In this document: positions 2,712-25,990 of the stretch, piece by piece | How the letters are laid out: each line of letters begins with the position of its first letter | Position numbering within the stretch: position 1 is the first letter of the stretch | The notes under the pieces: model-generated | Told to the model about the DNA's origin: nothing | Database searches by the model: none | What the model saw: the letters and a program-made list of their open reading frames with translations, nothing else | Made by a program: the position numbers and the translations under genes | NCBI RefSeq assembly: GCF_000092465.1 | Contig: NC_014205.1 | Coordinates: forward strand, 1,200,001 to 1,232,000 | Source of the DNA: Staphylothermus hellenicus DSM 12710 | GTDB lineage: Archaea > Thermoproteota > Thermoprotei_A > Sulfolobales > Desulfurococcaceae | Length of the DNA stretch: 32,000 nucleotides | Direction: 5' to 3'

Positions 2712-3166
2712 GGCTTTAACACCACTACACCATTATTTGTTTCCAAAAATGCTTCTGGAGAGTTTGATCTTATTCGGAAAACCATGCCGTGATCAATAAT
2801 TGTTGTATTCTTCCATCCATTATCTATATAGGCTTCTACAGGCGTTGAAACATTTATGGGATCGCCATAGTTGTAAGCATAGATATAGCCGTTACTATAC
2901 ATTATATAGGAAACCCTAATCTCTCCATTATCACTTGTTAATCCATTACCTACATGTAGCATGCTTGGAACAATATTGCTAACAATTAATGCTGTACCTG
3001 ATATCACTAATACTAATAGGATCGCCTCTGAGACAAAACTTGATAAACCCTTCACATAGCCTCCCCTAAGCGGTAGATTATCTTTATAAAGAAGCGGCAT
3101 AGGCGAAAGTATTCTTTTAGTGAAATAAAATGGATATTTACAAACTAGACCGATCTTTTTCTCCAA
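2708..3166 (-). CDS. Putative archaeal type IV pilin-like protein (class III signal peptide)
   Basis: ...LPLRGGYVKG|LSSFVSEAILLVLVISGTALIV matches the [KR]G|hydrophobic-stretch pattern cleaved by archaeal prepilin peptidases. The mature part is about 110 aa and beta-rich. The real start may be the internal Met (codon 3098-3100), which would remove the 22-nt overlap with the upstream gene. Confidence 0.55.
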   Translation of the reverse strand: MEKKIGLVCKYPFYFTKRILSPMPLLYKDNLPLRGGYVKGLSSFVSEAILLVLVISGTALIVSNIVPSMLHVGNGLTSDNGEIRVSYIMYSNGYIYAYNYGDPINVSTPVEAYIDNGWKNTTIIDHGMVFRIRSNSPEAFLETNNGVVVLKP

Positions 3167-5877: not shown

Positions 5878-5953
5878 GCGGCGGTCGTCTAGCCTGGACT
5901 AGGACGCCGGCCCCCCAAGCCGGAGATCCCGGGTTCAAATCCCGGCCGCCGCA
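5878..5953 (+). tRNA. tRNA-Gly (anticodon CCC)
   Basis: Hand-folded cloverleaf, 76 nt. Acceptor GCGGCGG/CCGCCGC, D-stem GTCT/GGAC, anticodon stem CCGGC/GCCGG, loop CCCCCAA, T-arm CCGGG-TTCAAAT-CCCGG, discriminator A. No encoded CCA. TATA-like taaaataat lies about 25 nt upstream. Confidence 0.9.
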
Positions 5954-6047
5954 CTTTACCTATTCCTTCATTAGTTCCATTATAAAATGATCTGTTTTTA
6001 TATTAACGTATTAGTTTATTTTTAAGTTAAAACTATTTTAATTCTAG

Positions 6048-8633: not shown

Positions 8634-9452
8634 ATGTCTAGATTCCCCATAGATTATAATGATAGAAAACCAATTGGAAAAACCGGCGAAACTATCACAG
8701 CTATAGGACTTGGAACATGGGCTATCAGGGATTATTCGAGAGCTTATAAGACATTTGTATATGCTATAGAAAATGGCATTGATAATATAGATACTGCTGA
8801 AATGTATGATAGTGGAAGAGCTGAGGAATTCGTTGGCAGAGTTGTTAGAGAAGTTGGAAAAGATAAAGTATTTGTAACCACAAAAATGCTTCCACAACAC
8901 CTCGTATCCACTGATGAAGTGTTAAAAGCTGCTAAAGCAAGTCTTAAGAGGCTGGGTCTCAGCGAGGTTGATTTATTCTTAATTCACTGGCCTAATAGGA
9001 ATCTATCTATAGAGGAGCAAGTAAGGAATTTTGAGATCGTTTATGAAGAGGGATTAGCTAGATATATTGGTGTGAGTAATTTCAATGTATATGAGCTTGA
9101 AAAAGCTATTCATGCTACTCGAAAAGCAGAGATAGTAGTTGACCAAGTTCATTATAGTGTTTTAACAAAGGACATAGAGAAGGATCTGCTACCATATGCT
9201 ATTAAAAACGGTATAACTATTCAAGCGTATACACCGTTAGAAAGAAGCCGTGTATCGCATCATCCAACTATAATAGAGATCGCGAAGAAGATCAATAAGA
9301 CACCTGTACAGGTAGCACTAAACTATCTGATCTCTAGACCTAACGTTGTTGCCATACCTAAAACTGAAAACATAGAACATGTAAAGGAAATAATTGGAGC
9401 TATGGGATGGAGGCTCGGAGAAAAGGAAATTAGCATGTTAGAAAATATTTAA
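8634..9452 (+). CDS. Aldo/keto reductase
   Basis: 272 aa. AKR blocks GLGTW, IDTAEMYDSGRAEEFVG, LFLIHWP, IGVSNF and IPKTENIEHVKE. Confidence 0.9.
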   Translation: MSRFPIDYNDRKPIGKTGETITAIGLGTWAIRDYSRAYKTFVYAIENGIDNIDTAEMYDSGRAEEFVGRVVREVGKDKVFVTTKMLPQHLVSTDEVLKAAKASLKRLGLSEVDLFLIHWPNRNLSIEEQVRNFEIVYEEGLARYIGVSNFNVYELEKAIHATRKAEIVVDQVHYSVLTKDIEKDLLPYAIKNGITIQAYTPLERSRVSHHPTIIEIAKKINKTPVQVALNYLISRPNVVAIPKTENIEHVKEIIGAMGWRLGEKEISMLENI

Positions 9453-9662
9453 CCTTCTATTAATACATACAACTGCTATTCTATTTTTTACCCCTTTGTG
9501 ACAGATATGTTCGACCACTATAGCACAGTAGTGTTTCAGAATTAAACATAACAAAGTTTAAGCTAATAGAATAATCTCATACAAGATATGACATTTATAT
9601 CTAATACAGTTCAAACTTCTTCTTCAATATAAAGAAGGTTCTTGGTTCTAGCACTAATACTA

Positions 9663-9681
9663 TATGCTAAAGCTTAGCATA
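9663..9681. repeat. Perfect 8-bp inverted repeat tatgctaa-agc-ttagcata
   Basis: Read directly. About 70 nt upstream of the 9752 ATG in a 300-bp intergenic region. Candidate operator or small hairpin. Confidence 0.4.
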
Positions 9682-9751
9682 GATGAGTTATTGTTATTAG
9701 CGTCTTAACATAACCCATATCTTAGATGCGTCTATACGAGGATCAGGGCTT

Positions 9752-10612
9752 ATGTTTAAATTAAATAATATAAGTATTTTAGCTATTATCACAATAGCTG
9801 TATTGCTAGGTTTTATATTTTATAACACATTTATTGAAACAAGTATTTCCAGCTCGAGTTATAGCCTAGATAACGCGTATCAGGAATCAATATCTTACTT
9901 GAACAAGACAAGTTTACATATTCAATATAAGAATCCCAGCTATGATGTAGATCCTGCTGACCTATTGAAGCTCCATAAATATATTGAGGAAGAAAAAGTA
10001 AGAATACTGAATACTCCCGGAATATCATATAAAGAATTAACAACCGTTGATACATATGGAAATATAACGATCGTTTCTAGAAAACTATTCAATATAACAA
10101 TGGATCTACCTATTATATGGGCCGGCATGGAGAAAAGCATTGATGAACTCAGCAATTTGAACATAAGGAAATCACTAAATATATACTATGAGATGAAATC
10201 ACGATTATATAATATCGTGAATGAACTCAATGAATCACTGAAAATCTTAATATATGTGAGAGAAAAAGGGATATTGCTCGATGATCACAATACTACGGTG
10301 AATTACTCGATCATGGTTATCAACGACACACTCAACACCATCCTAGAATATATAAAATTAATGGAGATCCTATCATCTAATATAGAAAACATGGAAAACA
10401 ATAATACAAATCAAACCTTATTAAAACTCGCAGAGTCTATCGCGAAACAAGTTGATATGGAGAAATTAAAGCCATTCGCAAAACAAATATCAATGTTCTT
10501 AACGAAGCTTTCAATGGGAGAAATCGTTAAGAAACAGAAAACCAATATGACAAACACCGAGAACCCAGGAGGAATAAGTGGAGGATACTCTGGGAGCATG
10601 GAAGATGATTAA
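9752..10612 (+). CDS. Membrane-anchored coiled-coil protein (hypothetical), first gene of the VWA transcription unit
   Basis: 286 aa. N-terminal TM (ISILAIITIAVLLGFIFY), long helical/charged body, G/S-rich tail (NPGGISGGYSGS). Its stop overlaps the probable start of the next gene. Confidence 0.6.
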   Translation: MFKLNNISILAIITIAVLLGFIFYNTFIETSISSSSYSLDNAYQESISYLNKTSLHIQYKNPSYDVDPADLLKLHKYIEEEKVRILNTPGISYKELTTVDTYGNITIVSRKLFNITMDLPIIWAGMEKSIDELSNLNIRKSLNIYYEMKSRLYNIVNELNESLKILIYVREKGILLDDHNTTVNYSIMVINDTLNTILEYIKLMEILSSNIENMENNNTNQTLLKLAESIAKQVDMEKLKPFAKQISMFLTKLSMGEIVKKQKTNMTNTENPGGISGGYSGSMEDD

Positions 10613-11546
10613 ATTACTACATCCAGAAATGATCAATATTATATTAATTATTGTGCCAATACTGATGCTCTTATACATATACGTTTATTCTAGGAGAAGA
10701 AATCTTCTAAAATTACTAGATCAAAGAGACAACGTATTATGGCATATTATTCAGGCCTCCAAAATAGCGTCGATAACATTATTACTTCTAGCATCAACGC
10801 TTCCAGTCAGTGTTCAAACAATACAGTTTACAGTACATGGAAACCCTGAGGAAACGGAGATTAGGAGAGTAATGTATAATATAACAGCATTACATGTGCT
10901 ATTAATCGATGAATCTAAAAGTATGCAGTATACGGATGGAACCAATATCACTAGATTTGTTAGAGCTTTAAACTTTACATATAAGTACATGAATTATTTA
11001 TCACCCAAAGATAAACTATTGATCATCGGATTCTCGGAATATCCCAGAAAAATATGTTTAGGAAACACAACATTTTGCCGCCCCAAACTATTGGAGCTTG
11101 AACCCAACAAAAAATATACTGATCTGAGCGCGGCACTAGCTTATGCATACTCATATGTTACAGCATCACAGTATCCAGCTATAATCGTTATAGTCAGTGA
11201 TGGAGCATATAATGAGGGTGGAGACCCATATGATGAAATAGTTTCAATAAATAAGTCTGGATACCCAGTATTATTTGTTAGAGTAGGATTAGATAAACGA
11301 GCTGACCAATTAATTGAAGAGCTTACGGCTTCTAACATATATGTTATAAACATTAATCAGTTCACCGAGAAACTACTGAATAAGCTGACAGAAGATGCTG
11401 CTAGACAGATGAGATTGGAAGCATTTGTATCCAAGAAACTATTAGAGGTAAAGGTTTCAAAAGAAGTAATTTATCCATATCCAACAGTTTACCTATTAGT
11501 TGCAAGCCTAGTTTTATTTCTAGCATCACGTATTGAGGGATACTAA
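10578..11546 (+). CDS. von Willebrand factor A (VWA) domain membrane protein, BatA-like
   Basis: MIDAS motif LLIDESKSM (D-x-S-x-S). N-terminal TM pair followed by RRR, and a C-terminal TM (VYLLVASLVLFLA). The likely true start is the ATG at 10605 (MIKLLHPEMINIILIIVP...), which overlaps the upstream stop as ATGATTAA. Confidence 0.8.
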   Translation: MEDTLGAWKMIKLLHPEMINIILIIVPILMLLYIYVYSRRRNLLKLLDQRDNVLWHIIQASKIASITLLLLASTLPVSVQTIQFTVHGNPEETEIRRVMYNITALHVLLIDESKSMQYTDGTNITRFVRALNFTYKYMNYLSPKDKLLIIGFSEYPRKICLGNTTFCRPKLLELEPNKKYTDLSAALAYAYSYVTASQYPAIIVIVSDGAYNEGGDPYDEIVSINKSGYPVLFVRVGLDKRADQLIEELTASNIYVININQFTEKLLNKLTEDAARQMRLEAFVSKKLLEVKVSKEVIYPYPTVYLLVASLVLFLASRIEGY

Positions 11547-12548
11547 TTGGTAATGCTTGAATACCCCATAATAATCTATATTGTACCGTTAATTTTGCTG
11601 TCAATGTACGTGTTATTAAGATGGGGGAGAAGAAGAGTTCTAGGCAGAATATATTCTTTTAATCATCCGTTAACACGGTATGTTTCATCCTATATTAGAA
11701 AACAACATGATATTAAATGGTATTTAAATATAGCATTAGCTATTGCATCGATTGTATTAATAATGTTTTCACTAGCATTGCCATATACTATAATACCTAG
11801 ATATGTGAAGACTACACAAACACTTGAAGCTAAGATCAGCTTGCAGAGAAAACCTCCCGTAGTAATAGTTTTAGATACGTCTGGCAGCATGAAAGGAGAT
11901 AAAATTATCACAGCTATTAATGCTGTAAAGAAATTCATTGATCAAACAATAGATTATGTATTAATTGGCCTAATAACATTTAATGATCATGTTAGAATAG
12001 CTATACCTCCAACAAGTGATCAGGAGCTTCTATATAAGAAGCTTGGAGAAATAAAAGCTTTCGGCGGAACAATATATAGTAAGCCACTAGAAATAGCATA
12101 TGATTGGTTAGTCCCCTTTGCTGAATTCAACTTATCTCCAACAATAATATTTGTAACTGATGGCTTACCTTATAGTCAAGATGCTCCTTTGTATAGAGAA
12201 GTAGTATATAAATGTGCAAGATATAATATAACAATATATCCTATCTTCATCGAAACGCCGGGAATGAGTATCTATGAAACCATGATGGCTCAGCAGAGAC
12301 TACGAGAAATAGCAAATATTACGAAGGGACAATTCTATAATGTAAAACAAACAAATAGCTTGATTAATTTATTTGAAAAACTCGCTGAGAAAACAGTTTC
12401 AAAGGCTGGAAACTATATTTTGACAAGCAATATAAATTATAAAATCGATGTTAAGAACTACGTTGTCGAACCATATATTTTAGCAGCTTTCTTAGTTTTC
12501 TTCGCAAATATGATCCTGAGATCACTGCTTTATAAGTCAACTCTCTAA
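11547..12548 (+). CDS. VWA domain membrane protein, BatA/BatB-like
   Basis: MIDAS VVIVLDTSGSMKGDKI. N-terminal TM followed by RRR, C-terminal TM (YILAAFLVFFANMIL). Starts immediately after the previous stop. Confidence 0.8.
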   Translation: MVMLEYPIIIYIVPLILLSMYVLLRWGRRRVLGRIYSFNHPLTRYVSSYIRKQHDIKWYLNIALAIASIVLIMFSLALPYTIIPRYVKTTQTLEAKISLQRKPPVVIVLDTSGSMKGDKIITAINAVKKFIDQTIDYVLIGLITFNDHVRIAIPPTSDQELLYKKLGEIKAFGGTIYSKPLEIAYDWLVPFAEFNLSPTIIFVTDGLPYSQDAPLYREVVYKCARYNITIYPIFIETPGMSIYETMMAQQRLREIANITKGQFYNVKQTNSLINLFEKLAEKTVSKAGNYILTSNINYKIDVKNYVVEPYILAAFLVFFANMILRSLLYKSTL

Positions 12549-13314
12549 ATAATTTAAGCACGAATTTGTAATCATATGCTTCAATAAAAGTTATCGATAA
12601 TACCCATACAATAAGAATACTCGATAATCTAATGTTTTGACTAGTTAATACGTATTCCTGAAAAACACTTAGAGAACCAGTATTTTCATATATTTTCTCA
12701 GCTAGATACAAAATCATTGTTCTATAATATGGATTATCCTGTGACCTCTTTACAACATTTATAAATATATCAGGCCGAGGAGGGGAACTGGGATAATATG
12801 TTAGTGGAGGCACATATTTTGTTAAATCAACTATTATATCCTGCCTAACACTGAGAACAACTATTATAATAAGATACTTTGAACAAATATTTTCTAAAAC
12901 AACATATTTATCCTCTAAACCCATCCCTACAAGAATAGGATTAACTTTTCCCTCATATAAAGAGACATAATCCATATATGTTAGAATAGGAGAGGGGGGT
13001 TCTATAGGGGTATAGTTGCTGAGGAAATACTTGATCCTTATATTAACTATAGGTAGTGAGGCATAGGTTAAATTTTTAACATGGTAATCAATTACTATGT
13101 CTTTTCTAGTATTGCCTCCACAGTGTAATGGATAAATACTATATGCATATATACGTATTGGAGAATAATCATTTGAATAAACGATATTGTATCCCTTGTC
13201 TATAGCTGTTAGTTCTGAAGAATAAAGAGGTACTCCATGAGATCCGAAAATGTAAAGTGATGTCCAAATTAATGCAATAATAAAAAATATTATTGATAAA
13301 TGCTTTAAATCCAT
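12451..13314 (-). CDS. Hypothetical protein with N-terminal and C-proximal TM segments
   Basis: 287-aa ORF. N-terminal TM IIFFIIALIWTSLYIF, later TM LSSILIVWVLSITFI, basic tail. Its start overlaps the upstream membrane gene by 10 nt. Its 3' end overlaps the convergent VWA gene by 98 nt. Confidence 0.55.
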   Translation of the reverse strand: MDLKHLSIIFFIIALIWTSLYIFGSHGVPLYSSELTAIDKGYNIVYSNDYSPIRIYAYSIYPLHCGGNTRKDIVIDYHVKNLTYASLPIVNIRIKYFLSNYTPIEPPSPILTYMDYVSLYEGKVNPILVGMGLEDKYVVLENICSKYLIIIVVLSVRQDIIVDLTKYVPPLTYYPSSPPRPDIFINVVKRSQDNPYYRTMILYLAEKIYENTGSLSVFQEYVLTSQNIRLSSILIVWVLSITFIEAYDYKFVLKLFRELTYKAVISGSYLRRKLRKLLKYMVRQRSS

Positions 13315-13904
13315 TTATTCCACCCATAATAGACTATAAGCAATAGAGTCAGAGAGGATACGAGTAAAAGCGCTGGATAGACCAGATCATAACTAAATAA
13401 ATGACTTAACCTATAGAGCATAGATAATATAATTGAGATCTCAGTAAACAGTATCAATAATAAGGAGACTAGCTTATCCTTTATAAACGCCAAGTTAATC
13501 AACAAAATAAAAGATGATAAAGTGTTCATTAAAACAAAAATTAATAGGAAATATCCTATGAAAATATATTCTGAAAAATACTGTCCATGAATAATTATCC
13601 AGGGAATAAACATAACTAATGAAAAAATCAATAAATTATCAGTAATTATAGAAACAGCCTTTGCAAACATTTTCATTTTGCCAGAATTATCAGTGCTAAT
13701 ATAGAAGAGTTTATCAAATCCCTCAAACCACTCGATCATCCTAGATAACTCTACATACAATACCATAATGAATATTATATGTAGAAAAATAATCTCTCCA
13801 AAGAACAATTGTAGAACAATATATGTGAATGGAGTAAAAGCTAGTAAACCCCCCATAATAGCCGATAATATATATAGAATTGACTGGGCGGTATTAACCC
13901 TCAT
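13305..13904 (-). CDS. Polytopic membrane protein (possible ABC-2-type permease partner)
   Basis: 199 aa with about 5-6 hydrophobic spans. Starts 6 nt downstream of the ABC-like gene. The permease role is inferred from position only. Confidence 0.6.
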   Translation of the reverse strand: MRVNTAQSILYILSAIMGGLLAFTPFTYIVLQLFFGEIIFLHIIFIMVLYVELSRMIEWFEGFDKLFYISTDNSGKMKMFAKAVSIITDNLLIFSLVMFIPWIIIHGQYFSEYIFIGYFLLIFVLMNTLSSFILLINLAFIKDKLVSLLLILFTEISIILSMLYRLSHLFSYDLVYPALLLVSSLTLLLIVYYGWNKWI

Positions 13905-13910
13905 ATATGA

Positions 13911-14771
13911 TCATTCCTCAACTAAGCTCTGCTTAACAATTCTCATTCTCCTAATTATTCTTTTTCGCTGTAGATCAACTAGGTGAGATAAACATGTTCT
14001 ATACAATGACTTCTCTATAAAAACATAAAACATCTTTTCATTAAGAATAATTATACCCTTTAAACACTTTAATGATAATAGCTTAGATAAGCTATCCCTT
14101 TCAACGATTATTTCAATTGGAGTAGTTTCTTTCAAAAAATCTTTAAATGTAACCGGTCTAGTGCTGGTCTCAAATATTTTGTTGTTTCTTCTTATAATTA
14201 CTAAGTGCTCATAGTTTATATAATCAATAAGGTTTTTATTGGAAGAAATAATCACTATTGTTTTTCCCTTACTTCTCTTCTCATAGATTTCCATGGAAAG
14301 TCTTGACCAAAGAATATCATCTAGCTCTTTATATGGTTCTATAAGTACTGCTAGATTCCCTGATTTTCTCAGAACATAAATTGAACTAATTAAGTATAGT
14401 AGAGGCTTAGGAATATTCTTTATAATCAAAGGATAGTTATCTATTTTATACCCGTATTGTCTAAGCAAGTTAAGTATTTCAGAATATAATGTATAATCTT
14501 TTTCATCAATTGTTAAGATCTCGTCTAGAACCAGTGATTTTCCTTGTGCTAGTTCAGGAATAAATAATCCTTTTACTCCTTGAATCTTTATTCTTGAAAC
14601 AATGTTTCCACTAGAAGGCTTCTTATTTCCTAAAATATAGTTTGCTAGAAGAGTTTTATTGAAAAGTGCAGGAGTAATAATGAGGGTGATGCTTGGAGTA
14701 GGTATGTGGAAGAATAACTTATATGATTTACCTAGAAGATCCTGGATTAAAACATTATCAAATATTATCAT
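13911..14771 (-). CDS. ABC-ATPase-fold protein with degenerate catalytic motifs
   Basis: Collinear with ABC ATPases. Walker A region ITLIITPALFNKTLLANYILGNKKPSSGNI (expected GxxGxGKT; glycines lost). Signature region IPKP (expected LSGGQ). Walker B LAVLIEPYKELD (expected hhhhDEPxxGLD; D replaced by I). H-loop GKTIVIISSNKNL (expected SSH). C-terminal extension of about 80 aa. Confidence 0.6.
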   Translation of the reverse strand: MIIFDNVLIQDLLGKSYKLFFHIPTPSITLIITPALFNKTLLANYILGNKKPSSGNIVSRIKIQGVKGLFIPELAQGKSLVLDEILTIDEKDYTLYSEILNLLRQYGYKIDNYPLIIKNIPKPLLYLISSIYVLRKSGNLAVLIEPYKELDDILWSRLSMEIYEKRSKGKTIVIISSNKNLIDYINYEHLVIIRRNNKIFETSTRPVTFKDFLKETTPIEIIVERDSLSKLLSLKCLKGIIILNEKMFYVFIEKSLYRTCLSHLVDLQRKRIIRRMRIVKQSLVEE

Positions 14772-14793
14772 TTATTACACCATTGAATAATTA

Positions 14794-15837
14794 CTATGTA
14801 ACAGCTTCAACCGCATGTTTTAATCCTTCTCTTATTACTCTCATCCTAGCTTCGAAGTCTCCACCATACTCTATTACAAGGTCAATGTTAGGTATAACTC
14901 TGTGGTTGAGAACTGGGAATAATGCTTTTTCTAGATCAACATATTCTACTTTATCACTGCCTCTAATAGCTGCTAGTGCTTTAGATGCTTTTACGAGCAT
15001 TATACCTGCCCTAGGGCTTGCTCCTAATTCGAAGTATTTCCTAGTACTTTTTAGTGTCTCGGGCCTGGTTGCTCTAACTATTCGTGCAATATAGTCTAGC
15101 ATGGGGTCGGGAACCAATATTTTCTTACTTATTGTTTTTTGTGCTTCAACTATCCATTCGGGTGTAACTATTTTTTCTAGATCCTCTATTGGCTCGACGA
15201 TTCTATATGCATGTAATTTATAAATGTTCTTTTCATCCTCCAAGCTCTTAGGATAACCCATAATTATCCTCATCATGAATCGGTCAAGCTGAGCCTCTGG
15301 TAACGGATATGTTCCTTCCTGCTCGATCGGGTTCTCCGTAGCTATTACAAAGAAGAACTTGCCTTTATCCTTATATTCAAGCTTATATGTTTTATCACCT
15401 ATAGTTACTTCTCTCTCCTGCATTGCTTGAAGCATTGCTGATTGTGTTCTAGGTGTTGCACGGTTTATCTCATCAGCAAGTACAATATATGAAAATATAG
15501 GGCCAAGTCTAGGCTCAAACTCTCTGGTTACAGGGTTAAATATTAGTGAACCCGTTATATCGCTAGGCATAAGATCAGGTGTGAATTGTATACGTGAAAA
15601 CCCTGTAAACGGAGTATTCTCTATGAAGTATTTTCTTCTCTCCTCGAGACCTAATACTCTAACTAGTGCTCGTGCAATAGTTGTTTTAGCAATGCCTGGA
15701 ACACCTTCCAACAACACGTGTCCATCGGATAGGAGTGATGCTAGAAGAAGTTTCAATTCATAATCATAACCAATTATTGCTTTACCGATCTCCTTTAATA
15801 CCATATTTATTTTTTCACTTATCTCATCTACATCCAT
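14794..15837 (-). CDS. moxR: MoxR-family AAA+ ATPase
   Basis: 347 aa. Walker A LLEGVPGIAKTTIARAL, Walker B VLADEINRATPRTQSAMLQAMQE, FFVIATENPIEQEGTYPLPEAQLDRF. This is the canonical MoxR/RavA-type block order. Confidence 0.9.
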   Translation of the reverse strand: MDVDEISEKINMVLKEIGKAIIGYDYELKLLLASLLSDGHVLLEGVPGIAKTTIARALVRVLGLEERRKYFIENTPFTGFSRIQFTPDLMPSDITGSLIFNPVTREFEPRLGPIFSYIVLADEINRATPRTQSAMLQAMQEREVTIGDKTYKLEYKDKGKFFFVIATENPIEQEGTYPLPEAQLDRFMMRIIMGYPKSLEDEKNIYKLHAYRIVEPIEDLEKIVTPEWIVEAQKTISKKILVPDPMLDYIARIVRATRPETLKSTRKYFELGASPRAGIMLVKASKALAAIRGSDKVEYVDLEKALFPVLNHRVIPNIDLVIEYGGDFEARMRVIREGLKHAVEAVT

Positions 15838-15849
15838 TGTTTTAGCCTC

Positions 15850-16701
15850 TTATTTTGTTATGATTATATCGCCAATTTTCAATATATTGTCCCATCCAAT
15901 ATCCTGGTATTTCTCAACAAGTACTTCTTCAAATTCTAGATTAGAATTAAGCAGTTCAAATACTTGACTTGGAGCCTTATATGTTTCTAGTAAATGGTAT
16001 ATGTAGCCGTACAGGTGTAGATCAAGTCTTTCGTGTTCTCCAATATTGTTTCTCAATAAATTTCCTAACTCACTAAATCCTCTTGTTTCAAGAATGGATA
16101 AGAAATTGTTCCACAATATTGCTCCACTCCTATAATTACCGGATTCAATTCTCAACCCTACTTTTCCAGGTGAAAAAACTACTTCACTAACATATCCTAT
16201 TATCCCGTTGCTAGTGCTAACCACTAATTTACCTATTGTTTTATCTATTAATTCAATATAGGGATTACTTATTGGGAGAGGAAGACCCCTATACTTTGCT
16301 TCTCGAGGAGATTTAAGGAGAATAACCGCTATTCTCGAATCGCCTCTGGAAACCCTTCTATAAACTACATCAATCAATAATACATCATCTAGATCGATAA
16401 AAGCCTTTGTAAATTCTACTTTTGAAACAACCTTCTTCATAGGAATTTCTAAGCCCTCATTCCTAGCTGTTAATACTAGTTCCTCCAGCGTGAGATCGTC
16501 TGGGATCTCTAGGCCTCTTTCTTCCAATAATTCGCGAAGCCTATTAGTATCTGGAACCATATCGCCAACGTTGAATTTTAGACATGCTTTTAACATGGGT
16601 TTCTCGTTTATTGAGAAACCACATAAGTCTCCAAAAAATAGACCTGTACTATCATATATTTTAGCATCAATAACTTCTCTATAAGAGTAGTATTTCTGCA
16701 A
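15850..16701 (-). CDS. Hypothetical protein, possibly two PRC-barrel-like domains; first gene of the MoxR unit
   Basis: 283-aa ORF 12 nt upstream of moxR. Segments REVIDAKIYDSTGLFFGDLCGFSINE and LIDKTIGKLVVSTSNGIIGYVSEVVFSPGKVGLRI look like PRC-barrel openings. This is a weak call by eye. Confidence 0.6.
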   Translation of the reverse strand: MQKYYSYREVIDAKIYDSTGLFFGDLCGFSINEKPMLKACLKFNVGDMVPDTNRLRELLEERGLEIPDDLTLEELVLTARNEGLEIPMKKVVSKVEFTKAFIDLDDVLLIDVVYRRVSRGDSRIAVILLKSPREAKYRGLPLPISNPYIELIDKTIGKLVVSTSNGIIGYVSEVVFSPGKVGLRIESGNYRSGAILWNNFLSILETRGFSELGNLLRNNIGEHERLDLHLYGYIYHLLETYKAPSQVFELLNSNLEFEEVLVEKYQDIGWDNILKIGDIIITK

Positions 16702-16796
16702 AACTCTTCACCACGATAAAATACTACATATATAGTGGGTAAATAGTATATCTGAAATAAATGGTTATAATGTAGAATTTTGGCGGCTGAGAAGGG

Positions 16797-17684
16797 ATGC
16801 CTACAAGGATATGTAGAAGAGCGGGGTTAGCATCAAAACTGTCTAGAGCTCATTTTAGTAATTTAATGTATGGCATAGTCCCCTCTAAGATTAAGGGTCC
16901 AGGCTTCGAATATGTTGATTTAAGAGAGTATTCTCCGGGAGACGATATTAGGTTCATAGATTGGAGAGCATCAGCTAGAATGATCAAGCCTGATGGAGAT
17001 TATAGATTAATGGTTAAAGAGCATTTATTGGAGAGACTAGTAAATAACATTGTTGTATTAGACTATTCTAAATCAATGCTATATGGCGACAAGATAGAAT
17101 CAGCCATATATGTGCTTACAGGGTTTCTAAGCATAGCTCATAGTCTGGGAGATATAATCGATTTAATAATTCTGCATGGAGAAAAACCCTTAATAAAACA
17201 TGGGCTAAATCCTTTGGAAGCTATTAATTTTTCATTAAATACTATATGCAAAGTAGATCCTAGTGGAAACCTTGATCTAATTAAACTCTCCAACTACGTT
17301 AAAAACCTAAAAAATAGAGAAACATTGCTATTAATTACAGACTATGCACACTACCCAATAGAATTCGAAGTATTAGCAACAACAACTCACGCCATGAATA
17401 CTGGTCTAGGAATTGTACTTGTATCTACAAAGCTCGAGTTAAATCCTCCAAGCCTAGATGGATACCATGCATTCTATGATCTGGAAAGCGCAGATTCAGA
17501 ATTAAAGACAATGATGAGCGAATACTATAGAGCTGTTAAAACCCACATAATAAAAACTAAGACAGCCCTAGCTAAGACTAGAACACCATATATTGAGATC
17601 AAGGAGTTAAGAGATGCAATGTATAAGAAGCTTAGATTATTAAAGCTATACTCTATAACCCGTATCAGATATAAAAGATACTAA
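16797..17684 (+). CDS. DUF58 domain protein (MoxR-associated, VWA-like fold)
   Basis: Signature VDLREYSPGDDIRFIDWRASAR followed by VVLDYSKSM. Divergently transcribed from the MoxR unit. Confidence 0.85.
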   Translation: MPTRICRRAGLASKLSRAHFSNLMYGIVPSKIKGPGFEYVDLREYSPGDDIRFIDWRASARMIKPDGDYRLMVKEHLLERLVNNIVVLDYSKSMLYGDKIESAIYVLTGFLSIAHSLGDIIDLIILHGEKPLIKHGLNPLEAINFSLNTICKVDPSGNLDLIKLSNYVKNLKNRETLLLITDYAHYPIEFEVLATTTHAMNTGLGIVLVSTKLELNPPSLDGYHAFYDLESADSELKTMMSEYYRAVKTHIIKTKTALAKTRTPYIEIKELRDAMYKKLRLLKLYSITRIRYKRY

Positions 17685-17818
17685 TCTTCTTTCTCGCCAA
17701 GATATGATCCTTTATATGAAAACATGGTTTCACCGCTCATCTTGAACAGTACAAGTTGAGCTATTTGAGCATTCTTTTCGAGAACTATCCCATGTTTATT
17801 AAATACAGCTAGTAATCC

Positions 17819-18041
17819 TATCCGTTTGTCCCTACCGTATCATCCTATGTGTTTGTGGTAGGGACTTCCGCCTCTCCCATAGTCTTTTCTTGAAGGCTAT
17901 GGTGTCATGGGCGGCTGTCGAGGCCAACGGCACAGGCCTCCCATCTACAGCAAGCCCCATGGGTCTCGGAGCATAGCTCCCATCAACCCACAGGGACACA
18001 AACCAATACAAGGAGATATAACCTGAAATATTTAAAGCTTA
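17819..18041 (-). ncRNA. Unclassified GC-rich structured RNA-like element, copy A (inserted in dut)
   Basis: Structured core 17824-18003, closed by gtttgt/acaaac. Hairpins gtccctacc/ggtagggac, ccgcc/ggcgg plus ccatag/ctatgg, gaggcc/ggcctc and ggagc/gctcc. Paralog at 23777-24015 shows compensatory changes. The strand call is tentative: a kink-turn-like loop and a TATA-like box favour minus, while some G:U pairs favour plus. Confidence 0.5.
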
Positions 18042-18043
18042 CT
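18029..18043 (-). promoter_or_regulatory. BRE/TATA-like box inside element copy A (minus sense: agtaag-ctttaaata)
   Basis: Conserved with copy B. The TATA-like TTTAAATA ends about 24-26 nt upstream of the GG preceding the terminal helix (minus sense). Confidence 0.3.
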
Positions 18044-18540
18044 GTCCCCGGCCCTCATAGCCTGGATCTCATACTGCCGTATATATTGTAGCGCCCATTC
18101 TCAACAATGAAGAACGAGGAAATACTAGACCCATGTATCCATTAGGTATCTCCACGTATTCATTGTATCGAACAATATATGCCCCGCTGCTAAGCCTACA
18201 TATAGGATCGCATTTTATCTCTTCATACCTAGGCAGAACCTTATCATTCATCCTAAGCTCTCCAATAGTCTTAGGAACATATATAGTCTTCAATGTAAGT
18301 CTTATACCAGCACAATCCAGCATATTATCGGATAAACCCAGCAATAACTTAATATCCTCAGGCCTTAACACGGTCAAACCATAAACCCCCTTCATAACAA
18401 TAACATTCCCTAATATATACTATAAATGGCTCAAGAATATTTACAATGCAATAATATTAATCATTTAAGTTAAAGATTTTCTTAATCCAAGAAAATTATT
18501 GCTAACGATTTTTAATGTCCATTATGGTATATAATTATAG

Positions 18541-19830
18541 GTGTCTAGGTTGAATAAATCAGCCCCACTCCTTATTCTATTAGTATTTTTAGCACTCCTA
18601 GTTAATTCATTTGTATTTGCCAACCCTATTCCTGCGCCTACGATTATTCTTGATCGAGAAGATATTACTTTTAACTTTACATATCTAGGTAATGGAGTTG
18701 TTAGTGTTAGTGTTTATGGAAAATATACTATGAGAAACGCGGGTTATGCAGTTATTACTATGTATTTTCCTGTTCCAAATGAGACTGATCGAGAAAGTGT
18801 TAGAGTATTGGTTAATGGTAAGGAAATGAGTTACGGTTTTACATGGGACATGATCATTTGGGGACATAAATACAGATATTACACTGTTAAGGGGCCTCTT
18901 CCACTTATTACATGGAGTGTTATGGGTGGTGAAGAAAAATATGTTGTGGAGGTATACTATAACTACAAGTTTAATATTAGAAACGGGTTTGGAGAAACAA
19001 TATATGCTCTCGGCACCGGTAAATACTATTATACTTATTCAAAGCAATGCATTGCAACAATTAATATCAACCTAAAAGGATTCAATAATACATTGCTCAA
19101 CATTATATTAGACGCTCCAAATCAGACAGAAACACTTGTTTATGCTAAGCTCATAAATAAGCCTATAAGAACAAGTATCGTTTTAGCCTCAAACAGGTTC
19201 TCAAGCTTTAAGAGAGACCTATGGTTTATGTTTAAGCAAATCAATCCAAACAATTATATGGAAGGATACGTGGGAAAAATACATTTAAGAATTGATCCAT
19301 TACTAGGGATGAAGTATTTGAAAATACATGGATCAGCCGCGTTTAATAGTGGCGGATACATGTTCTCAAGATTAGAACTCGTTACAAGCGAGAACGAAGT
19401 TGATTTAGTAATGAATATAATACAGATAAAGGGTCCAGCAGCAATGATCATTAAAGAAGTTGATTATGAACTATATGCACCATTGAATATAAGTGAAACA
19501 GGAAAATTAAACTTCAAACTTATAGTTAATGAAAGAATATTAGTGAACAAAACATTGAATTGTACTCGGCAGATGCAGCCACTAGTAGAAGAATCTATAG
19601 TACAAAAGCCAATAAACAACTCAACTATACCAATACAAAACCAAAACACTACTACGACAAATACACAGCATTCCAACAATAACCCTGATGAATCACCGTC
19701 TTCAACAACGCCTATGATAGAAGAAAAAACAACATATAAAAGAACAAAAACAATAAGTACATTAACATTGATTGTATCAGCAGTAATAGCGTTAATATTG
19801 TTTGCCCTATTAATATCTAAAAAGCGATAG
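18541..19830 (+). CDS. Secreted, C-terminally membrane-anchored surface glycoprotein (hypothetical)
   Basis: 429 aa starting at GTG. Signal peptide LLILLVFLALLVNSFVFA, T/N/P/S-rich stalk (NQNTTTTNTQHSNNNPDESPSSTTP), C-terminal TM plus KKR. Many N-x-S/T sequons. Confidence 0.7.
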   Translation: MSRLNKSAPLLILLVFLALLVNSFVFANPIPAPTIILDREDITFNFTYLGNGVVSVSVYGKYTMRNAGYAVITMYFPVPNETDRESVRVLVNGKEMSYGFTWDMIIWGHKYRYYTVKGPLPLITWSVMGGEEKYVVEVYYNYKFNIRNGFGETIYALGTGKYYYTYSKQCIATININLKGFNNTLLNIILDAPNQTETLVYAKLINKPIRTSIVLASNRFSSFKRDLWFMFKQINPNNYMEGYVGKIHLRIDPLLGMKYLKIHGSAAFNSGGYMFSRLELVTSENEVDLVMNIIQIKGPAAMIIKEVDYELYAPLNISETGKLNFKLIVNERILVNKTLNCTRQMQPLVEESIVQKPINNSTIPIQNQNTTTTNTQHSNNNPDESPSSTTPMIEEKTTYKRTKTISTLTLIVSAVIALILFALLISKKR

Positions 19831-19870
19831 ATATGAAATTTTTGCGAAAAATAAAGCAAGAGATATAGCC

Positions 19871-19896
19871 GGCTTCACAAGCCAGTTTTAATTTTA
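19871..19896 (+). terminator. Hairpin ggctt-cac-aagcc followed by a T-rich tract
   Basis: Read directly. Lies between the convergent genes 18541..19830(+) and 19940..21298(-) and is followed by agttttaattttagttt. Archaeal termination usually depends on oligo-T. Confidence 0.35.
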
Positions 19897-19939
19897 GTTT
19901 ATTGTCTTCGAAGAATAAATACTGATATAGTATTGATTA

Positions 19940-21298
19940 TTATCGGGTTTCCGTTAATATACCACTTTCTATACTGTATTCGTAACAACGGGGTTCAACG
20001 TTATGATACCTGAATTTTTTGAAACAGATGTACCTCATATATTCATTATTTATTTTTTCAAGCCTTAACTCAATTATGGCATCAACGATTGTGCTGAGCC
20101 ATGTATATGTTTTCTCGTCCTCATATCCGGTGAGAACTTTTGATAGGAATATTATTCCCCCAATACTTTTAACATAATATACTAGGTCACGTAGAAACCT
20201 ATGATATCTTTCTCCATACTCCTTCCATACTACGTGGAGACCGTCAAGCATTATAATATCATATTTTGTATTCATGTGCTTTGTAACTACGCTGAACAAT
20301 GAGTTCAGAGTTATTGTTCTAGGATTAATACCAACGATTTTCATATTATCCCTAATTTCTTCGTAACTATATCCAAGCGCCTTCATTGTAGCTATAAGTT
20401 GTCTGGGAGGCTCTTCGAAACTAATAAATAAGACTTTATTGTTACTTCTAGCTATTCCATACCCTAATCCTAATAATAGACATGTTTTACCGGCTCCCGA
20501 AGAACCTGTTATTAGTATTGATGTCCCCTTAACTATTCCGTTTGTATGCTTATCGAACCATTCAATAGAAGTTTTTACTCTGTTAGATAAATTGATTTTA
20601 GCATCGTATTGTCTCAATATACCATAGCTTATTATCTCCATACCCTTCCCGGGGACTACTTCGATTTCTGCAGTTCTAGAAACCCCTAATAATTCTCTGA
20701 GCGGCTTAACAATGGTAATGTATCTTCTCGGTTTCCCAGCACCAGGTATTTCAATAGATAGCGAAAACACATAATCAGCTACCGCCTCAAATATTTCTCT
20801 AATACCCTTGCTAATTTCCTCATTAAAAGATAAAACTATTTTAACTCCATATTTTTTCTTACACTCATTAATTGCCCCAACTAAGCCGGCAAGCTTGCTT
20901 TTTGAGAGCCCCATCAATGCTATTCCAGCAGGATATATTATCACTAATCCATTCCTACTTTGTATGCATGCTTCACTAATTATTTCCATGATACTATCAA
21001 TTCTACGTTCCTCCTTCATAGGCAAAGAGGTGATCTCATTGACTCTGAGAGCGCCATTTTCCAAATGTTTCCTAATAGGAATTCCGTAGAACTCAGCTGT
21101 TCTGAAAAATGACATAGTATCAACCATGAATAGTAAAATAGAGGCTTTACCCATTCCTCTCCCGATGTATTCATTGATCAAAGTTGAAATGAACAAACCT
21201 TTGCCTGAACCTATTGGGCCTCTTAACACAATTACACTTGGCTTAATCATTCCTTCTAAAAGATCACTAGTAATACTTAGTTTCACATGAGAACACAT
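19940..21298 (-). CDS. KaiC-like / RecA-superfamily ATPase, two tandem domains
   Basis: 452 aa. Domain 1 P-loop LRGPIGSGKGLF (GKG rather than GK[ST]). Domain 2 canonical ILITGSSGAGKTCLLLGL, Walker B-like DIIMLDGL, and FISFEE blocks typical of the COG0467 KaiC/RadA-like family. Confidence 0.8.
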   Translation of the reverse strand: MCSHVKLSITSDLLEGMIKPSVIVLRGPIGSGKGLFISTLINEYIGRGMGKASILLFMVDTMSFFRTAEFYGIPIRKHLENGALRVNEITSLPMKEERRIDSIMEIISEACIQSRNGLVIIYPAGIALMGLSKSKLAGLVGAINECKKKYGVKIVLSFNEEISKGIREIFEAVADYVFSLSIEIPGAGKPRRYITIVKPLRELLGVSRTAEIEVVPGKGMEIISYGILRQYDAKINLSNRVKTSIEWFDKHTNGIVKGTSILITGSSGAGKTCLLLGLGYGIARSNNKVLFISFEEPPRQLIATMKALGYSYEEIRDNMKIVGINPRTITLNSLFSVVTKHMNTKYDIIMLDGLHVVWKEYGERYHRFLRDLVYYVKSIGGIIFLSKVLTGYEDEKTYTWLSTIVDAIIELRLEKINNEYMRYICFKKFRYHNVEPRCYEYSIESGILTETR

Positions 21299-21442
21299 AT
21301 TTTCTACCCGTCTATTCTAAACTAATTATTTTGTATAAATATGTTTTACAGCTATATTATTCCTTTCTATTTCTAATATGTTATGAAAATTAAGAATTTA
21401 TCCTGATCCCCAGATGTTTAAACAAATCTATGAGGTTAAATC

Positions 21443-21835
21443 TTATATAGGAGGATCATCTTTCTCATTATAAATAATTATTTCAACGATATCATTATCT
21501 TTTAGATTAAGTGTTTTCCGTAGGTTTTTCTCCGAAATTATTTCTAAAATGTTCCATCCATGCTTCGTTATACAAGGCTTTATAACATAGATCTTTATTC
21601 CCATAAGTATGCCTGGATATGCTAGTACGCATCCCAGCCCTTTTCTGGGAGGAGGGATTATTTTTGCTTTTAGTTTTTTAGTGTAGGTAAAAAAGTCTTG
21701 ACCTATGTCAATGTTTAGAGTTCCAGGGTATGGGTCTATTCCCAGGTATTTATTGAAGACTTCACGGTATAGTTTAACATATTTTGCTCCAACACCTAAT
21801 CCCTTCACTATTTTCCCTTTGATCTTAATCGGCAT
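21443..21835 (-). CDS. ribK: CTP-dependent riboflavin kinase (archaeal RibK, DUF120 family)
   Basis: 130 aa. GKIVKGLGVGAKYVKLYREVFNKYLGIDPYPGTLNIDI and the C-terminal LNLKDNDIVEIIIY match my recollection of the M. jannaschii MJ0056-type enzyme pattern (G.V.SGLGEG...PY.GTLN). Confidence 0.8.
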   Translation of the reverse strand: MPIKIKGKIVKGLGVGAKYVKLYREVFNKYLGIDPYPGTLNIDIGQDFFTYTKKLKAKIIPPPRKGLGCVLAYPGILMGIKIYVIKPCITKHGWNILEIISEKNLRKTLNLKDNDIVEIIIYNEKDDPPI

Positions 21836-21850
21836 TTCAGCATAACCACT

Positions 21851-23683
21851 TCACTTTAGCCCGACTATGCTGTCTAATACTGGAATGGCTTCTTTTAAGC
21901 CTAGCTTCTCCAAAGTTTCTTTCTTAGGAACCCCTCTCTCATCCCACCCACGCATCTCGTAGTAAATACTTAACATTTTATCATATTTGTTAATATCTAG
22001 TTTTACGCCTGCAAACGGGCCTTTGGTTAATGGGTGTTTAAACCATCTCATCGGTGGATAATCCATTGTACGGCTCCATCTATTATATTCTCTTATCCAG
22101 AATGCTCTGATCAGTGTATATATTCTATCGGCGACTCTATAGATATCATCCATGCTCCACTCAATACCTGTTGCAGCAGATAACATTTTAGGATAGTAAT
22201 CCAGGTTTAATCCTAGCTCAACCCATGGAAGCCTACAAGTTGTTAGTGATTCAAACATTCCTCCCCTAACTCTTTGTAGGAATATTAGTTTCTCAACCTT
22301 CTCCCTATTATATGCGAACCTATCCATTTTAACCTCTAAACCAATAAGCCATGCATCTTTATGATGTGCTCCTATAGGTGATGTGGCAAAAGCTAATGCC
22401 ATTCCGGGGGCAGCGTGGCAATTATAAGCTGATACTTCTAATCCTTTTGCATGCATTGCAAAATCTTGCGCTTCTCTACCAAGTGATAAAGACATTCTCC
22501 ATACTCCCTCTGCTAGAAAAGCTCCTAGTCCCCGCCTATAAGCTATGTCCTTAACTAGTTCTTTGACTTCCCCATAGTCTCCCCATTCAATTTTCTCTCT
22601 GATCAATCTTTTCTCAGAAGCTTCCATAGTGAAGCCTAAACTATTTCCTAGAGAAATAGTGTCCAATCCATACATATCCGCCAGCTTGTTGAGCTCAGCG
22701 ACTTTTCTCAGATCAGGTAATAAAATGTTGCTTCCAAGCATTGCAACGTTTTCATAGTCTAGCTCGCTTTTCTCACCTGTTTCATCTATTATAACGTTTC
22801 CACACTGCATGTTACAGTATGGGCATCCTCTTCTCTCAATTTTTAGTTTCTCCATGAGATCACCGCTGATTGTATCATAGTATTCCCAAACACCTTCTCT
22901 GAAATTCATGGTTGGTAATACACTGTTTTCATTGCTCCAAACAATTGTAGCCATTGTGCCCTGCCTAATCCAGAAATCATAGTTTTCCTTAGATAGTACT
23001 TCCTTATATGAGGCTTCGCTGAGCTCTCTAAGTTTTTTCTCATCAGCGATCGGGGGGTTCCTTGTACCTTTAATCACTATTGCTTTAACCTTCTTAAAAC
23101 CCATAACTGCACCCATACCTGGTCTTCCACCGCTTCTACCCTTCATGGAAACGATTGTAGCGTATCTTACAAGATTCTCGCCTGCGGGACCTATTAGGAG
23201 AACACCAATGTTCCTACCATGTTCTCTAACAAGTTTATCCTCCGCATCAAACGCATCCCTACCCCATAAATCATCTGCATCCATGAACTCGACCTTGTCG
23301 TTCTCAATATATAAGTAGATAGGCTTATCCGAAGCACCCTCTAATACTATCGCGTCATAACCAGCTTTTCTAAGATGAACACTAGCCATAGTACCTATGT
23401 TTCCATCACCATAACCATTAGTTAATGGACTCTTAGAAGCAACAACTAGTTTACCACTGCTAGGTAGAGGCAAACCCGATAATGGCCCTGATGCAATCAC
23501 TAATTTATTATGTGGAGATAAAGGATCTACTCCGGGAACAAGCTCGTCCCATAGAATCTTTGCTGCAAGACCCCTACCACCTATATAGTTACTATAAATA
23601 CTGGGATCAAGTTCTTGGACAACATATTTCCTCTTAGACACATCTATTCTAAGAATTCTACCCCACCAACCATACATACACAA
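21851..23683 (-). CDS. aor: Tungsten-containing aldehyde:ferredoxin oxidoreductase family protein
   Basis: 610 aa. N-terminus (MC)MYGWWGRILRIDVSKRKY, GGRGLAAKILWDE and the Cys cluster CPYCNMQC are characteristic of the AOR family. The likely true start is the second ATG at 23677. Confidence 0.9.
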   Translation of the reverse strand: MCMYGWWGRILRIDVSKRKYVVQELDPSIYSNYIGGRGLAAKILWDELVPGVDPLSPHNKLVIASGPLSGLPLPSSGKLVVASKSPLTNGYGDGNIGTMASVHLRKAGYDAIVLEGASDKPIYLYIENDKVEFMDADDLWGRDAFDAEDKLVREHGRNIGVLLIGPAGENLVRYATIVSMKGRSGGRPGMGAVMGFKKVKAIVIKGTRNPPIADEKKLRELSEASYKEVLSKENYDFWIRQGTMATIVWSNENSVLPTMNFREGVWEYYDTISGDLMEKLKIERRGCPYCNMQCGNVIIDETGEKSELDYENVAMLGSNILLPDLRKVAELNKLADMYGLDTISLGNSLGFTMEASEKRLIREKIEWGDYGEVKELVKDIAYRRGLGAFLAEGVWRMSLSLGREAQDFAMHAKGLEVSAYNCHAAPGMALAFATSPIGAHHKDAWLIGLEVKMDRFAYNREKVEKLIFLQRVRGGMFESLTTCRLPWVELGLNLDYYPKMLSAATGIEWSMDDIYRVADRIYTLIRAFWIREYNRWSRTMDYPPMRWFKHPLTKGPFAGVKLDINKYDKMLSIYYEMRGWDERGVPKKETLEKLGLKEAIPVLDSIVGLK

Positions 23684-23776
23684 GCACCCTCATCTACCAA
23701 CTTATACGTAGAAGATTCTCCAGCAAATAATTATTATTGCGTAGCCCATATTAAAATGGTTATAGATGATGACTAC

Positions 23777-24015
23777 TCCGTTTGTCCCTACCGCATCATT
23801 CTATATGCTTATATACTTAATTGTGTCTGCGGTAGGGACTTCCACCTCTCCCACAACCCTAAAAGAGGGTTGTGGTGTCATGGGTGGCTGTCGAGGCCAA
23901 CGGCACAGGCCTCCCATCTACGGTGAAGCCCCCGTGGGTCTCGGAGCATAGCTCCCATCAACCCATAGGGATACAAACCAATACAAAAAACATAACCTGA
24001 AATATTTTAAACTTT
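23777..24015 (-). ncRNA. Unclassified GC-rich structured RNA-like element, copy B (upstream of aor)
   Basis: Collinear with copy A. Core 23780-23978 (gtttgt/acaaac). Identical blocks include gctgtcgaggccaacggcacaggcctcccatctac and gggtctcggagcatagctcccatcaaccc. The first hairpin loop is 18 nt longer. Helix changes are compensatory (ccacc/ggtgg; ccacaaccct/agggttgtgg). Confidence 0.5.
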
Positions 24016-24017
24016 CT
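24003..24017 (-). promoter_or_regulatory. BRE/TATA-like box inside element copy B (minus sense: agaaag-tttaaaata)
   Basis: Same position and spacing as in copy A. The flanks beyond it are unrelated apart from about 9 nt (ctgcctcgg vs ctgtccccgg). Confidence 0.3.
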
Positions 24018-24145
24018 GCCTCGGACAGATGTTTAGATGAAGAAAATTCCTTTAACTGATAATTTCTGAGCAACTTGATAATCATCCTTAATACTATGAG
24101 TTATTCATACAAGTAATATGTAAGATATTATTTGAGGCTAGGGGT

Positions 24146-25915: not shown

Positions 25916-25916
25916 G

Positions 25917-25990
25917 TGGGCCCGGGGGGATTTGAACCCCCGACCTCCCGGTTATCAGCCGGGCGCTCCACCAGGCTGAGCTACGGGCCC
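25917..25990 (-). tRNA. tRNA-Ile (anticodon GAU)
   Basis: Minus sense: GGGCCCG-TA-GCTC-AGCCTGGTG-GAGC-G-CCCGG-CTGATAA-CCGGG-AGGTC-GGGGG-TTCAAAT-CCCCC-CGGGCCC-A, 74 nt. Clean cloverleaf, no encoded CCA. Confidence 0.9.

Follow-up and report, generated by a model that had tools for sequence, protein, structure and literature searches.

How can the dUTPase (dut) gene of Staphylothermus hellenicus DSM 12710 be expressed when its reading frame is broken twice, once by an in-frame TGA and once by 223 nt of structured sequence? The gene lies in a 32,000-nucleotide stretch of the genome (contig NC_014205.1, positions 1,200,001 to 1,232,000; hereafter the window), and a sequence-only reading had left two answers side by side: a pseudogene in decay into which a mobile RNA-like element had inserted, or expression through RNA-level excision of the insertion together with readthrough of the stop codon. 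We demonstrate here the homology of the inserted element, its boundaries, the matching empty sites in sister genomes, a conserved RNA structure, and GG junctions that lack a duplication. Very probably, dut was killed by a point nonsense mutation and by a 223-nt gene-less derivative of an IS607-family transposon that carries an omegaRNA, which would be ordinary decay and not splicing.

Two lesions in the dut gene

The dut gene spans positions 18395 to 17681 on the minus strand. Its first open reading frame (ORF; 18395 to 18069) encodes 108 aa, ending in ...TIYTAV (PRSSLLRMGATIYTAV) before the TGA. Past this stop the same frame reads DPGYEGRGQ and then TAA, and downstream of the insertion another frame reads GLLAVFN...EKED (GLLAVFNKHGIVLEKNAQIAQLVLFKMSGETMFSYKGSYLGEKED, followed by a stop). 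These three segments are present just as the sequence-only reading had described them, and deletion of 17819 to 18041, as it had proposed, does give a single dUTPase ORF of 163 codons. The same reading had placed the split exactly at GRGQ^GLLAVFN (^ marks a junction). The length of 223 nt stands but the exact position does not, since the true breakpoint is one codon (3 nt) upstream, at GRG^IGLLAVFN; the frame arithmetic holds because the same length is removed. The corrected junction restores GRG-IGLLAVFN, the counterpart of GQG-IGLLAVFN in S. marinus.

Once rejoined, the ORF shows 83% identity to the 157-aa dUTPase of S. marinus F1, which is intact. It is homologous to the dUTPase family over its full length and contains both characteristic motifs, PRSSLLRMG and (W)DPGYEG, while PF00692/PF22769 are found in its homologues; the product of the 5' part is called PF22769:DCD in an independently assembled contig (L009). 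An alignment of 16 homologues showed that the column occupied by the TGA is Trp in all full-length homologues except two Methanocaldococcus sequences with His, in line with the His named earlier for the M. jannaschii enzyme and with the claim that the stop replaces a sense codon. Since the S. marinus codon at this site is TGG, the TGA represents one G-to-A transition, again as suggested earlier. In the same alignment the two halves of the protein are contiguous in every intact homologue, so that the assumption of a single split gene held. Within the 3' fragment, no start codon opens a frame of 25 aa or more. The overlap between the stop codons of dut and the convergent DUF58 gene, which had also been pointed out, is real; it measures 4 nt and is kept in S. 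marinus.

Comparison of dut with its S. marinus orthologue gave a dN/dS of 0.20, against 0.05–0.17 for neighbouring genes, and revealed no frameshift in dut besides the insertion, which together suggest that inactivation was recent. Judged from these comparisons, S. hellenicus dut became a pseudogene recently and bears two lesions that arose independently, the TGG-to-TGA change and the 223-nt insertion. Published counts of pseudogenes per genome are 69 for S. hellenicus and 40 for S. marinus (PMC3236042).

Could the insertion, the TGA, or both be sequencing or assembly artefacts, with the gene intact in the organism? Repeats are often misassembled, and contigs assembled from independent S. hellenicus reads (Logan SRR3925462, fetched via neighbouring proteins) break inside the core of the element, which is to be expected when short reads are assembled over a repeat. 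However, these contigs match the window at 100% identity over 8797 to 17886 and 17969 to 23853. Contigs of separate read sets thus cover the TGA and both junctions, L009 spanning the TGA and the 5' junction and L008 the 3' junction. Because independent assemblies reproduce both lesions, neither is an error of a single assembly, which settles the check for assembly errors that the sequence-only reading had raised. In addition, the published genome is a finished one with gaps closed by PCR (PMC3236042). An nr entry for the 5' ORF (P0004), which begins at the TTG at 18377, stops at the same TGA, and the N-terminal ORF is 99% identical to the nr entry 'hypothetical protein [Staphylothermus hellenicus]'. 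We therefore give the artefact explanation a negligible probability.

The inserted element and its second copy

A blastn search of the window with the 223 nt inserted in dut (copy A) detected a second copy on the same strand (copy B), with about 91% identity across the blocks that match and 91–93% in the three longest of them. Copy B differs from copy A by an 18-nt loop insertion and by one hairpin stem in which the changes are compensatory. It is intergenic, lying between a gene for a 291-aa protein and an aldehyde:ferredoxin oxidoreductase gene, 94 nt upstream of the latter. The G+C content of copy A is 50%, against 35% across the window. Existing annotation, represented by P0004 and the Logan gene calls, gives a truncated hypothetical protein or nothing at the copies.

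We then compared both sites with the syntenic regions of S. marinus F1 and a third Staphylothermus (Logan SRR26701687). Both genomes have an intact dut and both sites are uninterrupted, so that the empty sites anticipated in sister genomes were found. Site A reads GGCCAGGGG^ATAGGG when empty (S. marinus) and GGCCGGGGA^CAGTAAG...ACAAACGG^ATAGGA when filled, while site B reads CTGTCCGGGG^AGTAGTC when empty (S. marinus and SRR26701687) and CTGTCCGAGG^CAGAAAG...ACAAACGG^AGTAGTC when filled. At both A and B, the filled site minus the empty site is exactly the element. Copy A is thus a net 223-nt insertion, CAG...AAACGG, and because empty and filled sites fix its boundaries, the insertion in dut is 17822 to 18044 (Table 1). 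The sister empty sites and the ends of 12 other copies, from the genomes described below, agree on these boundaries. An ambiguity of 1 nt (a G) and a possible GGA duplication at the insertion were dismissed on the strength of the other copies and the published GG core of IS607 elements.

Table 1. Coordinates of the dut segments, the inserted element and its second copy in the window, with the convergent neighbouring gene
Feature	Position	Strand	Basis
dut 5' part, codons 1-117 from the upstream ATG	18045..18395	-	ORF and translation
dut 3' part (IGLLAVFN...EKED, stop)	17681..17821	-	DNA alignment to S. marinus dut
In-frame TGA at a conserved Trp codon, just before the DPGY motif	18069..18071	-	protein alignment, 16 homologues
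Copy A, putative miniature IS607-type element, CAG...ACAAACGG	17822..18044	-, same orientation as dut	empty sites and shared ends
Left-junction core dinucleotide of copy A, GA	18045..18046	-	junction comparison
Left end of copy A, 41 nt	18004..18044	-	common to copy B, L011 and L033
OmegaRNA-like structured region, right end and tnpB C-terminal tail remnant of copy A	17822..18003	-	covariance model R1, covariation, tblastn
Copy B, 241 nt	23778..24018	-	blastn and alignment; R1, 200 bits
DUF58 gene, convergent (context only, outside the element)	16797..17684	+	stop overlaps dut stop

On its other side dut adjoins a gene for a predicted membrane or secreted protein of 429 aa (18541 to 19830, plus strand). 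An exact-product look-up gave no counterpart on record for this protein, and the calls at its position are 426 aa in Logan and 376 and 426 aa in S. marinus, indicating that the gene start or the sequence varies between strains. The window also holds genes for tRNA-Gly(CCC) (5878 to 5954, plus strand) and tRNA-Ile(GAU) (25916 to 25990, minus strand), and one Logan contig (L007) stops exactly at the latter (window 25917).

Conserved RNA structure and tnpB-bearing relatives

Analysis of the structured region predicted 42 base pairs, of which 18 show changes on both sides, that is, compensatory changes. Paired cells amounted to 92.8%, compared with 81.5% in shuffled alignments and 39–50% in slid controls, and none of 500 shuffles equalled the observed pairing or covariation score. 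The RNA corresponds to no Rfam family: Rfam 15 at gathering thresholds detected only two tRNAs in the whole window, and at E<=10 over 17600 to 18300 only chance-level snoRNA and miRNA matches. We also tried by hand to interpret both GAUGGGAG...CUC(C)GA hairpins as motifs of the K-turn or box C/D-like kind, but dropped this, as the polarity did not fit that of a K-turn.

We scanned 185,579 species genomes for both repeated GATGGGAG motifs (20-base) and obtained 25 hits. Nine of these, in metagenome-assembled genomes (MAGs) of Desulfurococcales, Thermoprotei, Thermoproteota and Thermofilaceae, show homology along the entire structured region; the other 16, all bacterial, were set aside as chance matches, none of them falling below E=0.1 with the covariance model (R1) that we built from the first 11 sequences. 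Copy A scores 189 bits with this model and copy B 200 bits. The same motif scan of viral contigs gave no match, nor did an exact 33-mer of the repeat core in a genome contig collection (apparently without S. hellenicus) or a protein search with a spurious 59-aa ORF inside the element.

The relatives place this RNA at the end of a gene. In three loci (L013, L021 and L028) the RNA begins within the end of a coding sequence (...WHRDVVA.WNLLFKALRGDGS...) that belongs to TnpB (PF07282, Cas12f1-like TNB domain). In L028 this tnpB gene is preceded by a gene for a 154-aa protein with Resolvase (1.3e-19) and HTH_17 domains. In Vulcanisaeta souniana (L035; also L036) a gene for a 212-aa HTH_17+Resolvase protein overlaps a tnpB gene of 432 codons (2501 to 3799), which by gene order is the canonical IS607 layout. 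R1 detected the RNA in L035 at 3610 to 3809 with 197.6 bits, in a sequence absent from model building; it consists of the final ~190 nt of tnpB plus 10 nt, ending in ...GGGACAAACGG. The RNA lies over the 3' end of tnpB, up to the right-end boundary of the element, in L035, L028, L013, L021 and L037. The TnpB family itself gave more than 700 hits, mostly of ~432 aa, from Vulcanisaeta, Ignisphaera, Hyperthermus and Desulfurococcales, and its members are named 'RNA-guided endonuclease InsQ/TnpB' or 'transposase' at their source.

Of this protein, copies A and B retain only a stretch matching TnpB residues about 418–466, the tail that overlaps the RNA (tblastn; 418–465 for copy A). An open frame (…DGRPVPLASTAAHD…) homologous to the TnpB C-terminal tail is kept in both copies (17862 to 18002 and 23835 to 23933, minus strand). 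As the same DNA codes for protein and for structured RNA in full elements, its conservation reflects two constraints. Copies that keep only the tnpB tail also occur in five further MAG loci. A gene-less RNA copy is also present in Ignisphaera (L037, 1371 to 1569, minus strand, 161.5 bits), ~1 kb upstream of a full tnpB copy with an RNA of its own (3610 to 3809), indicating that RNA copies detached from tnpB coexist with tnpB copies in one genome. Because the RNA sits at the 3' end of tnpB in these relatives, and at two independent loci a serine-recombinase gene adjoins that tnpB, we identify the structured element, by homology, as the omegaRNA and right-end region of an IS607-family element. 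It resembles TnpB omegaRNAs (reRNAs) in lying over the tnpB 3' end as far as the right-end boundary, in its covarying secondary structure and in having a variable flank past the boundary that is a putative guide. Unlike these, the RNA in the window is detached from tnpB, lies ~25–30 nt past a TATA-like box and has no match in Rfam.

One of these loci contains a further arrangement. In the Desulfurococcales MAG represented by L013 (4462 to 4976 and 5919 to 6407), only ~1 kb separates a truncated tnpB, with this RNA, from a dUTPase gene that is intact and belongs to the same family as the window pseudogene; the gene neighbourhood is the same, although the genome is unrelated. This proximity is probably a coincidence.

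The left end of the element comprises ~40 nt, CAG(A/T)AAG(C)TTTAAA(A)TATTTCAGG. It is common to the gene-less copies of L011 and L033 (CAGAAAsyTTwwArTATTTCA) and resembles the sequence upstream of tnpA in L028 and L035. In copy A it includes a TATA-like TTTAAATA (18029 to 18036), and in the miniature form this box is found ~25–30 nt upstream of the first RNA stem. From its position, full elements would use the TATA-like box as the promoter of tnpA. In L035, the left end before the tnpA start (1845 to 1870; GTTAGGGACAAATG) repeats the right-end terminus (3795 to 3809; CTAGGGACAAACGG) in direct orientation, and the left end of L028 is a further case. This could be the TnpA-binding repeat described for IS607 ends. 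The left end of the miniature S. hellenicus copies is without this motif, and its absence may mean that they are no longer able to move.

Archaeal bulge-helix-bulge (BHB) introns occur in protein-coding genes, for example in cbf5 of Crenarchaeota; their splice sites fall in two bulges of 3 nt each, with a 4-bp helix between them and a helix on either side. We considered whether the element is an archaeal intron, of the BHB or a self-splicing type, that is excised from the dut transcript, with readthrough of the TGA giving active enzyme. Like such introns, it is a strongly structured RNA in sense orientation that interrupts a conserved crenarchaeal ORF, and as its length is not a multiple of 3, its precise removal restores the frame; bacterial IStrons show, moreover, that IS605/IS607 elements can hold introns (PMC10690162). 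However, an exhaustive BHB scan within 30 nt on either side of both junctions yielded, at best, AU-rich candidates with 10 of 12 pairs, at offsets that fail to restore the protein or its conserved residues. Rfam 15 yielded no match to an intron family, whether group I, group II or another, at E<=10 over 17600 to 18300, and a group I intron would need more than the ~40 nt of the 5' part. Unlike a BHB intron, the element has no BHB at its junctions, is dispersed, occurs in an intergenic copy B and is homologous to a transposon end, the same RNA forming the tnpB 3' end in other genomes. Even after splicing the TGA would persist and still stop translation. RNA-level excision with readthrough is thus highly improbable. 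The repeat copy, the two sister empty sites, the transposon family and the second lesion all speak for the other answer of the sequence-only reading, a pseudogene in decay with an inserted mobile RNA-like element.

Insertion at GG and the consequences for dut

The IS607 family inserts at GG, has GG at the transposon end and generates no target duplication (PMC6188088). A comparison of the copies showed GG^(C/A)AGAA at eight of the nine left junctions read, and right ends of ...AAACGG^ in 12 of 13 copies. GGGG is present in both empty sites, and the target sites of copies A and B are alike, CCGRGG^A. No target duplication was found at either window copy when filled and empty sites were compared, and a repeat scan of 17600 to 18300 showed no inverted repeat pairing the two ends of the element. 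In these respects, and in having full-length relatives in which a HTH+Resolvase (serine recombinase) tnpA overlaps tnpB, the element resembles H. pylori IS607 and the C. botulinum IS607 IStron. Preference for bases upstream of GG is a further likeness, roughly GRGG here and TGGG in C. botulinum. It differs in that the window copies, of 223–241 nt, lack tnpA and tnpB and reside in a hyperthermophilic Thermoproteota host; unlike the IStron, it has no group I intron, and the left junction of copy A is GA. The C. botulinum element is strict for GG, its upstream preferences coincide with the target-adjacent motif (TAM) of TnpB, and non-canonical donor dinucleotides land at the left junction (PMC10690162). 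The similar target sites and the GA of copy A both fit this published behaviour.

Three changes at the two insertion sites or directly beside them are specific to S. hellenicus (window 18045, 18069 and 24021), and on the gene strand each is G to A, namely GG to GA at the left junction, TGG to TGA, and CCGGGG to CCGAGG at copy B. This pattern may simply reflect a common transition bias.

The element has the features of a non-autonomous transposon: it is gene-less and too short to encode a transposase, its ends match those of autonomous relatives (L028 and L035), its copies are dispersed and sister genomes have empty sites. Protein-less derivatives of tnpB elements with fused ends, called PATEs, are known in archaea (PMC3119063), and it has been noted that they carry omegaRNAs that would need TnpB in trans (10.1101/2023.03.14.532601). 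Like the PATEs of haloarchaea and Geobacillus, many of which have omegaRNAs and some of which retain part of the tnpB C-terminal coding region, the window element has lost its core, has fused ends and shows neither target duplication nor inverted repeats. The described PATEs are of the Y1-transposase IS200/IS605 lineage, whereas the window element would belong to the serine-recombinase (IS607) lineage. Might it instead be an IS200/IS605-family PATE, moved in single-stranded form ('peel and paste') by a tyrosine transposase of the Y1 type? The absence of duplications and inverted repeats would suit this mechanism equally, as would the subterminal hairpin (GTCCCTACC...GGTAGGGAC) that lies 6 nt short of the right end, left flanks that are mutually similar and TAM-like, and the precedent of omegaRNA-bearing PATEs for IS605. 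On the other hand, the only transposase genes beside tnpB of this family are HTH_17+Resolvase serine recombinases, at two independent loci; the junctions both carry the GG core typical of IS607; and no hairpin is evident at the left end. We consider an IS200/IS605 origin improbable.

Several observations weigh against assignment to a mobile IS607 derivative. The left junction of copy A is GA instead of GG. The serine recombinase is linked to the family in just two independent loci (L028; L035/L036), and at 154 aa the tnpA of L028 looks truncated. In the S. hellenicus sequence examined, namely the window and assembled contigs that make up part of the genome, neither tnpA nor tnpB of this family was seen, and mobilisation in trans and any use of the RNA in this organism are therefore hypothetical. 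The sole TnpB gene that was seen (L005, ~10 kb left of the window, 390 aa, PF27234 and PF07282) has a C-terminus 41% identical to the TnpB family of copies A and B. We rejected it as a partner of the element: at L005 14873 to 15146, its 3' part is followed by a GC-rich segment of its own, and its 3' RNA is unrelated and has no R1 match, which implies that S. hellenicus has at least one further TnpB/omegaRNA family.

With these points taken into account, the IS607 derivative would have arisen when an element with tnpA (serine recombinase) and tnpB lost its body, so that a left end of ~40 nt with its TATA-like box became joined directly to the last ~180 nt, comprising the 3' tail of tnpB, the scaffold of the omegaRNA and the right end. 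A serine TnpA acting in trans would then have inserted it into dut by crossover at the GG of ...CCGGG-GG-ATAGG.... Either the GG at the left junction later became GA, or a GA donor core may have been brought in. The element may still yield an omegaRNA, and its guide would be the adjacent dut sequence (ATAGGATTACTAGCTG, GRGG-flanked). Given that the element would stay in the mRNA, we conclude that dUTPase is in all likelihood not produced from this locus.

What appeared to be an unprecedented intron combined with stop-codon readthrough in an archaeal housekeeping gene can thus be replaced by a documented mechanism. The analysis provides the exact anatomy, ends, target motif and guide-RNA structure of a Thermoproteota IS607/TnpB family whose RNA is not in Rfam, and suggests that gene-less, guide-RNA-only copies exist for the serine-recombinase lineage in hyperthermophilic archaea. 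This should be useful for annotating both window copies and for mining thermostable TnpB/omegaRNA pairs. More speculatively, left ends that resemble one another are joined to the RNA in Staphylothermus and in one MAG each from Desulfurococcales and Thermofilaceae, which makes it conceivable, though on balance we doubt it, that the miniature of promoter plus omegaRNA is a self-standing spreading lineage that expresses guides from its own TATA box for a TnpB encoded elsewhere. If so, each insertion would make a new guide against the unoccupied allele, and the miniature would be the archaeal, IS607-type counterpart of PATEs that bear omegaRNAs, or else an intermediate on the way to domesticated guides that stand alone. 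With this dUTPase apparently lost, S. hellenicus itself poses a further question: by which enzyme is dUTP held at a low level in such a hyperthermophile?

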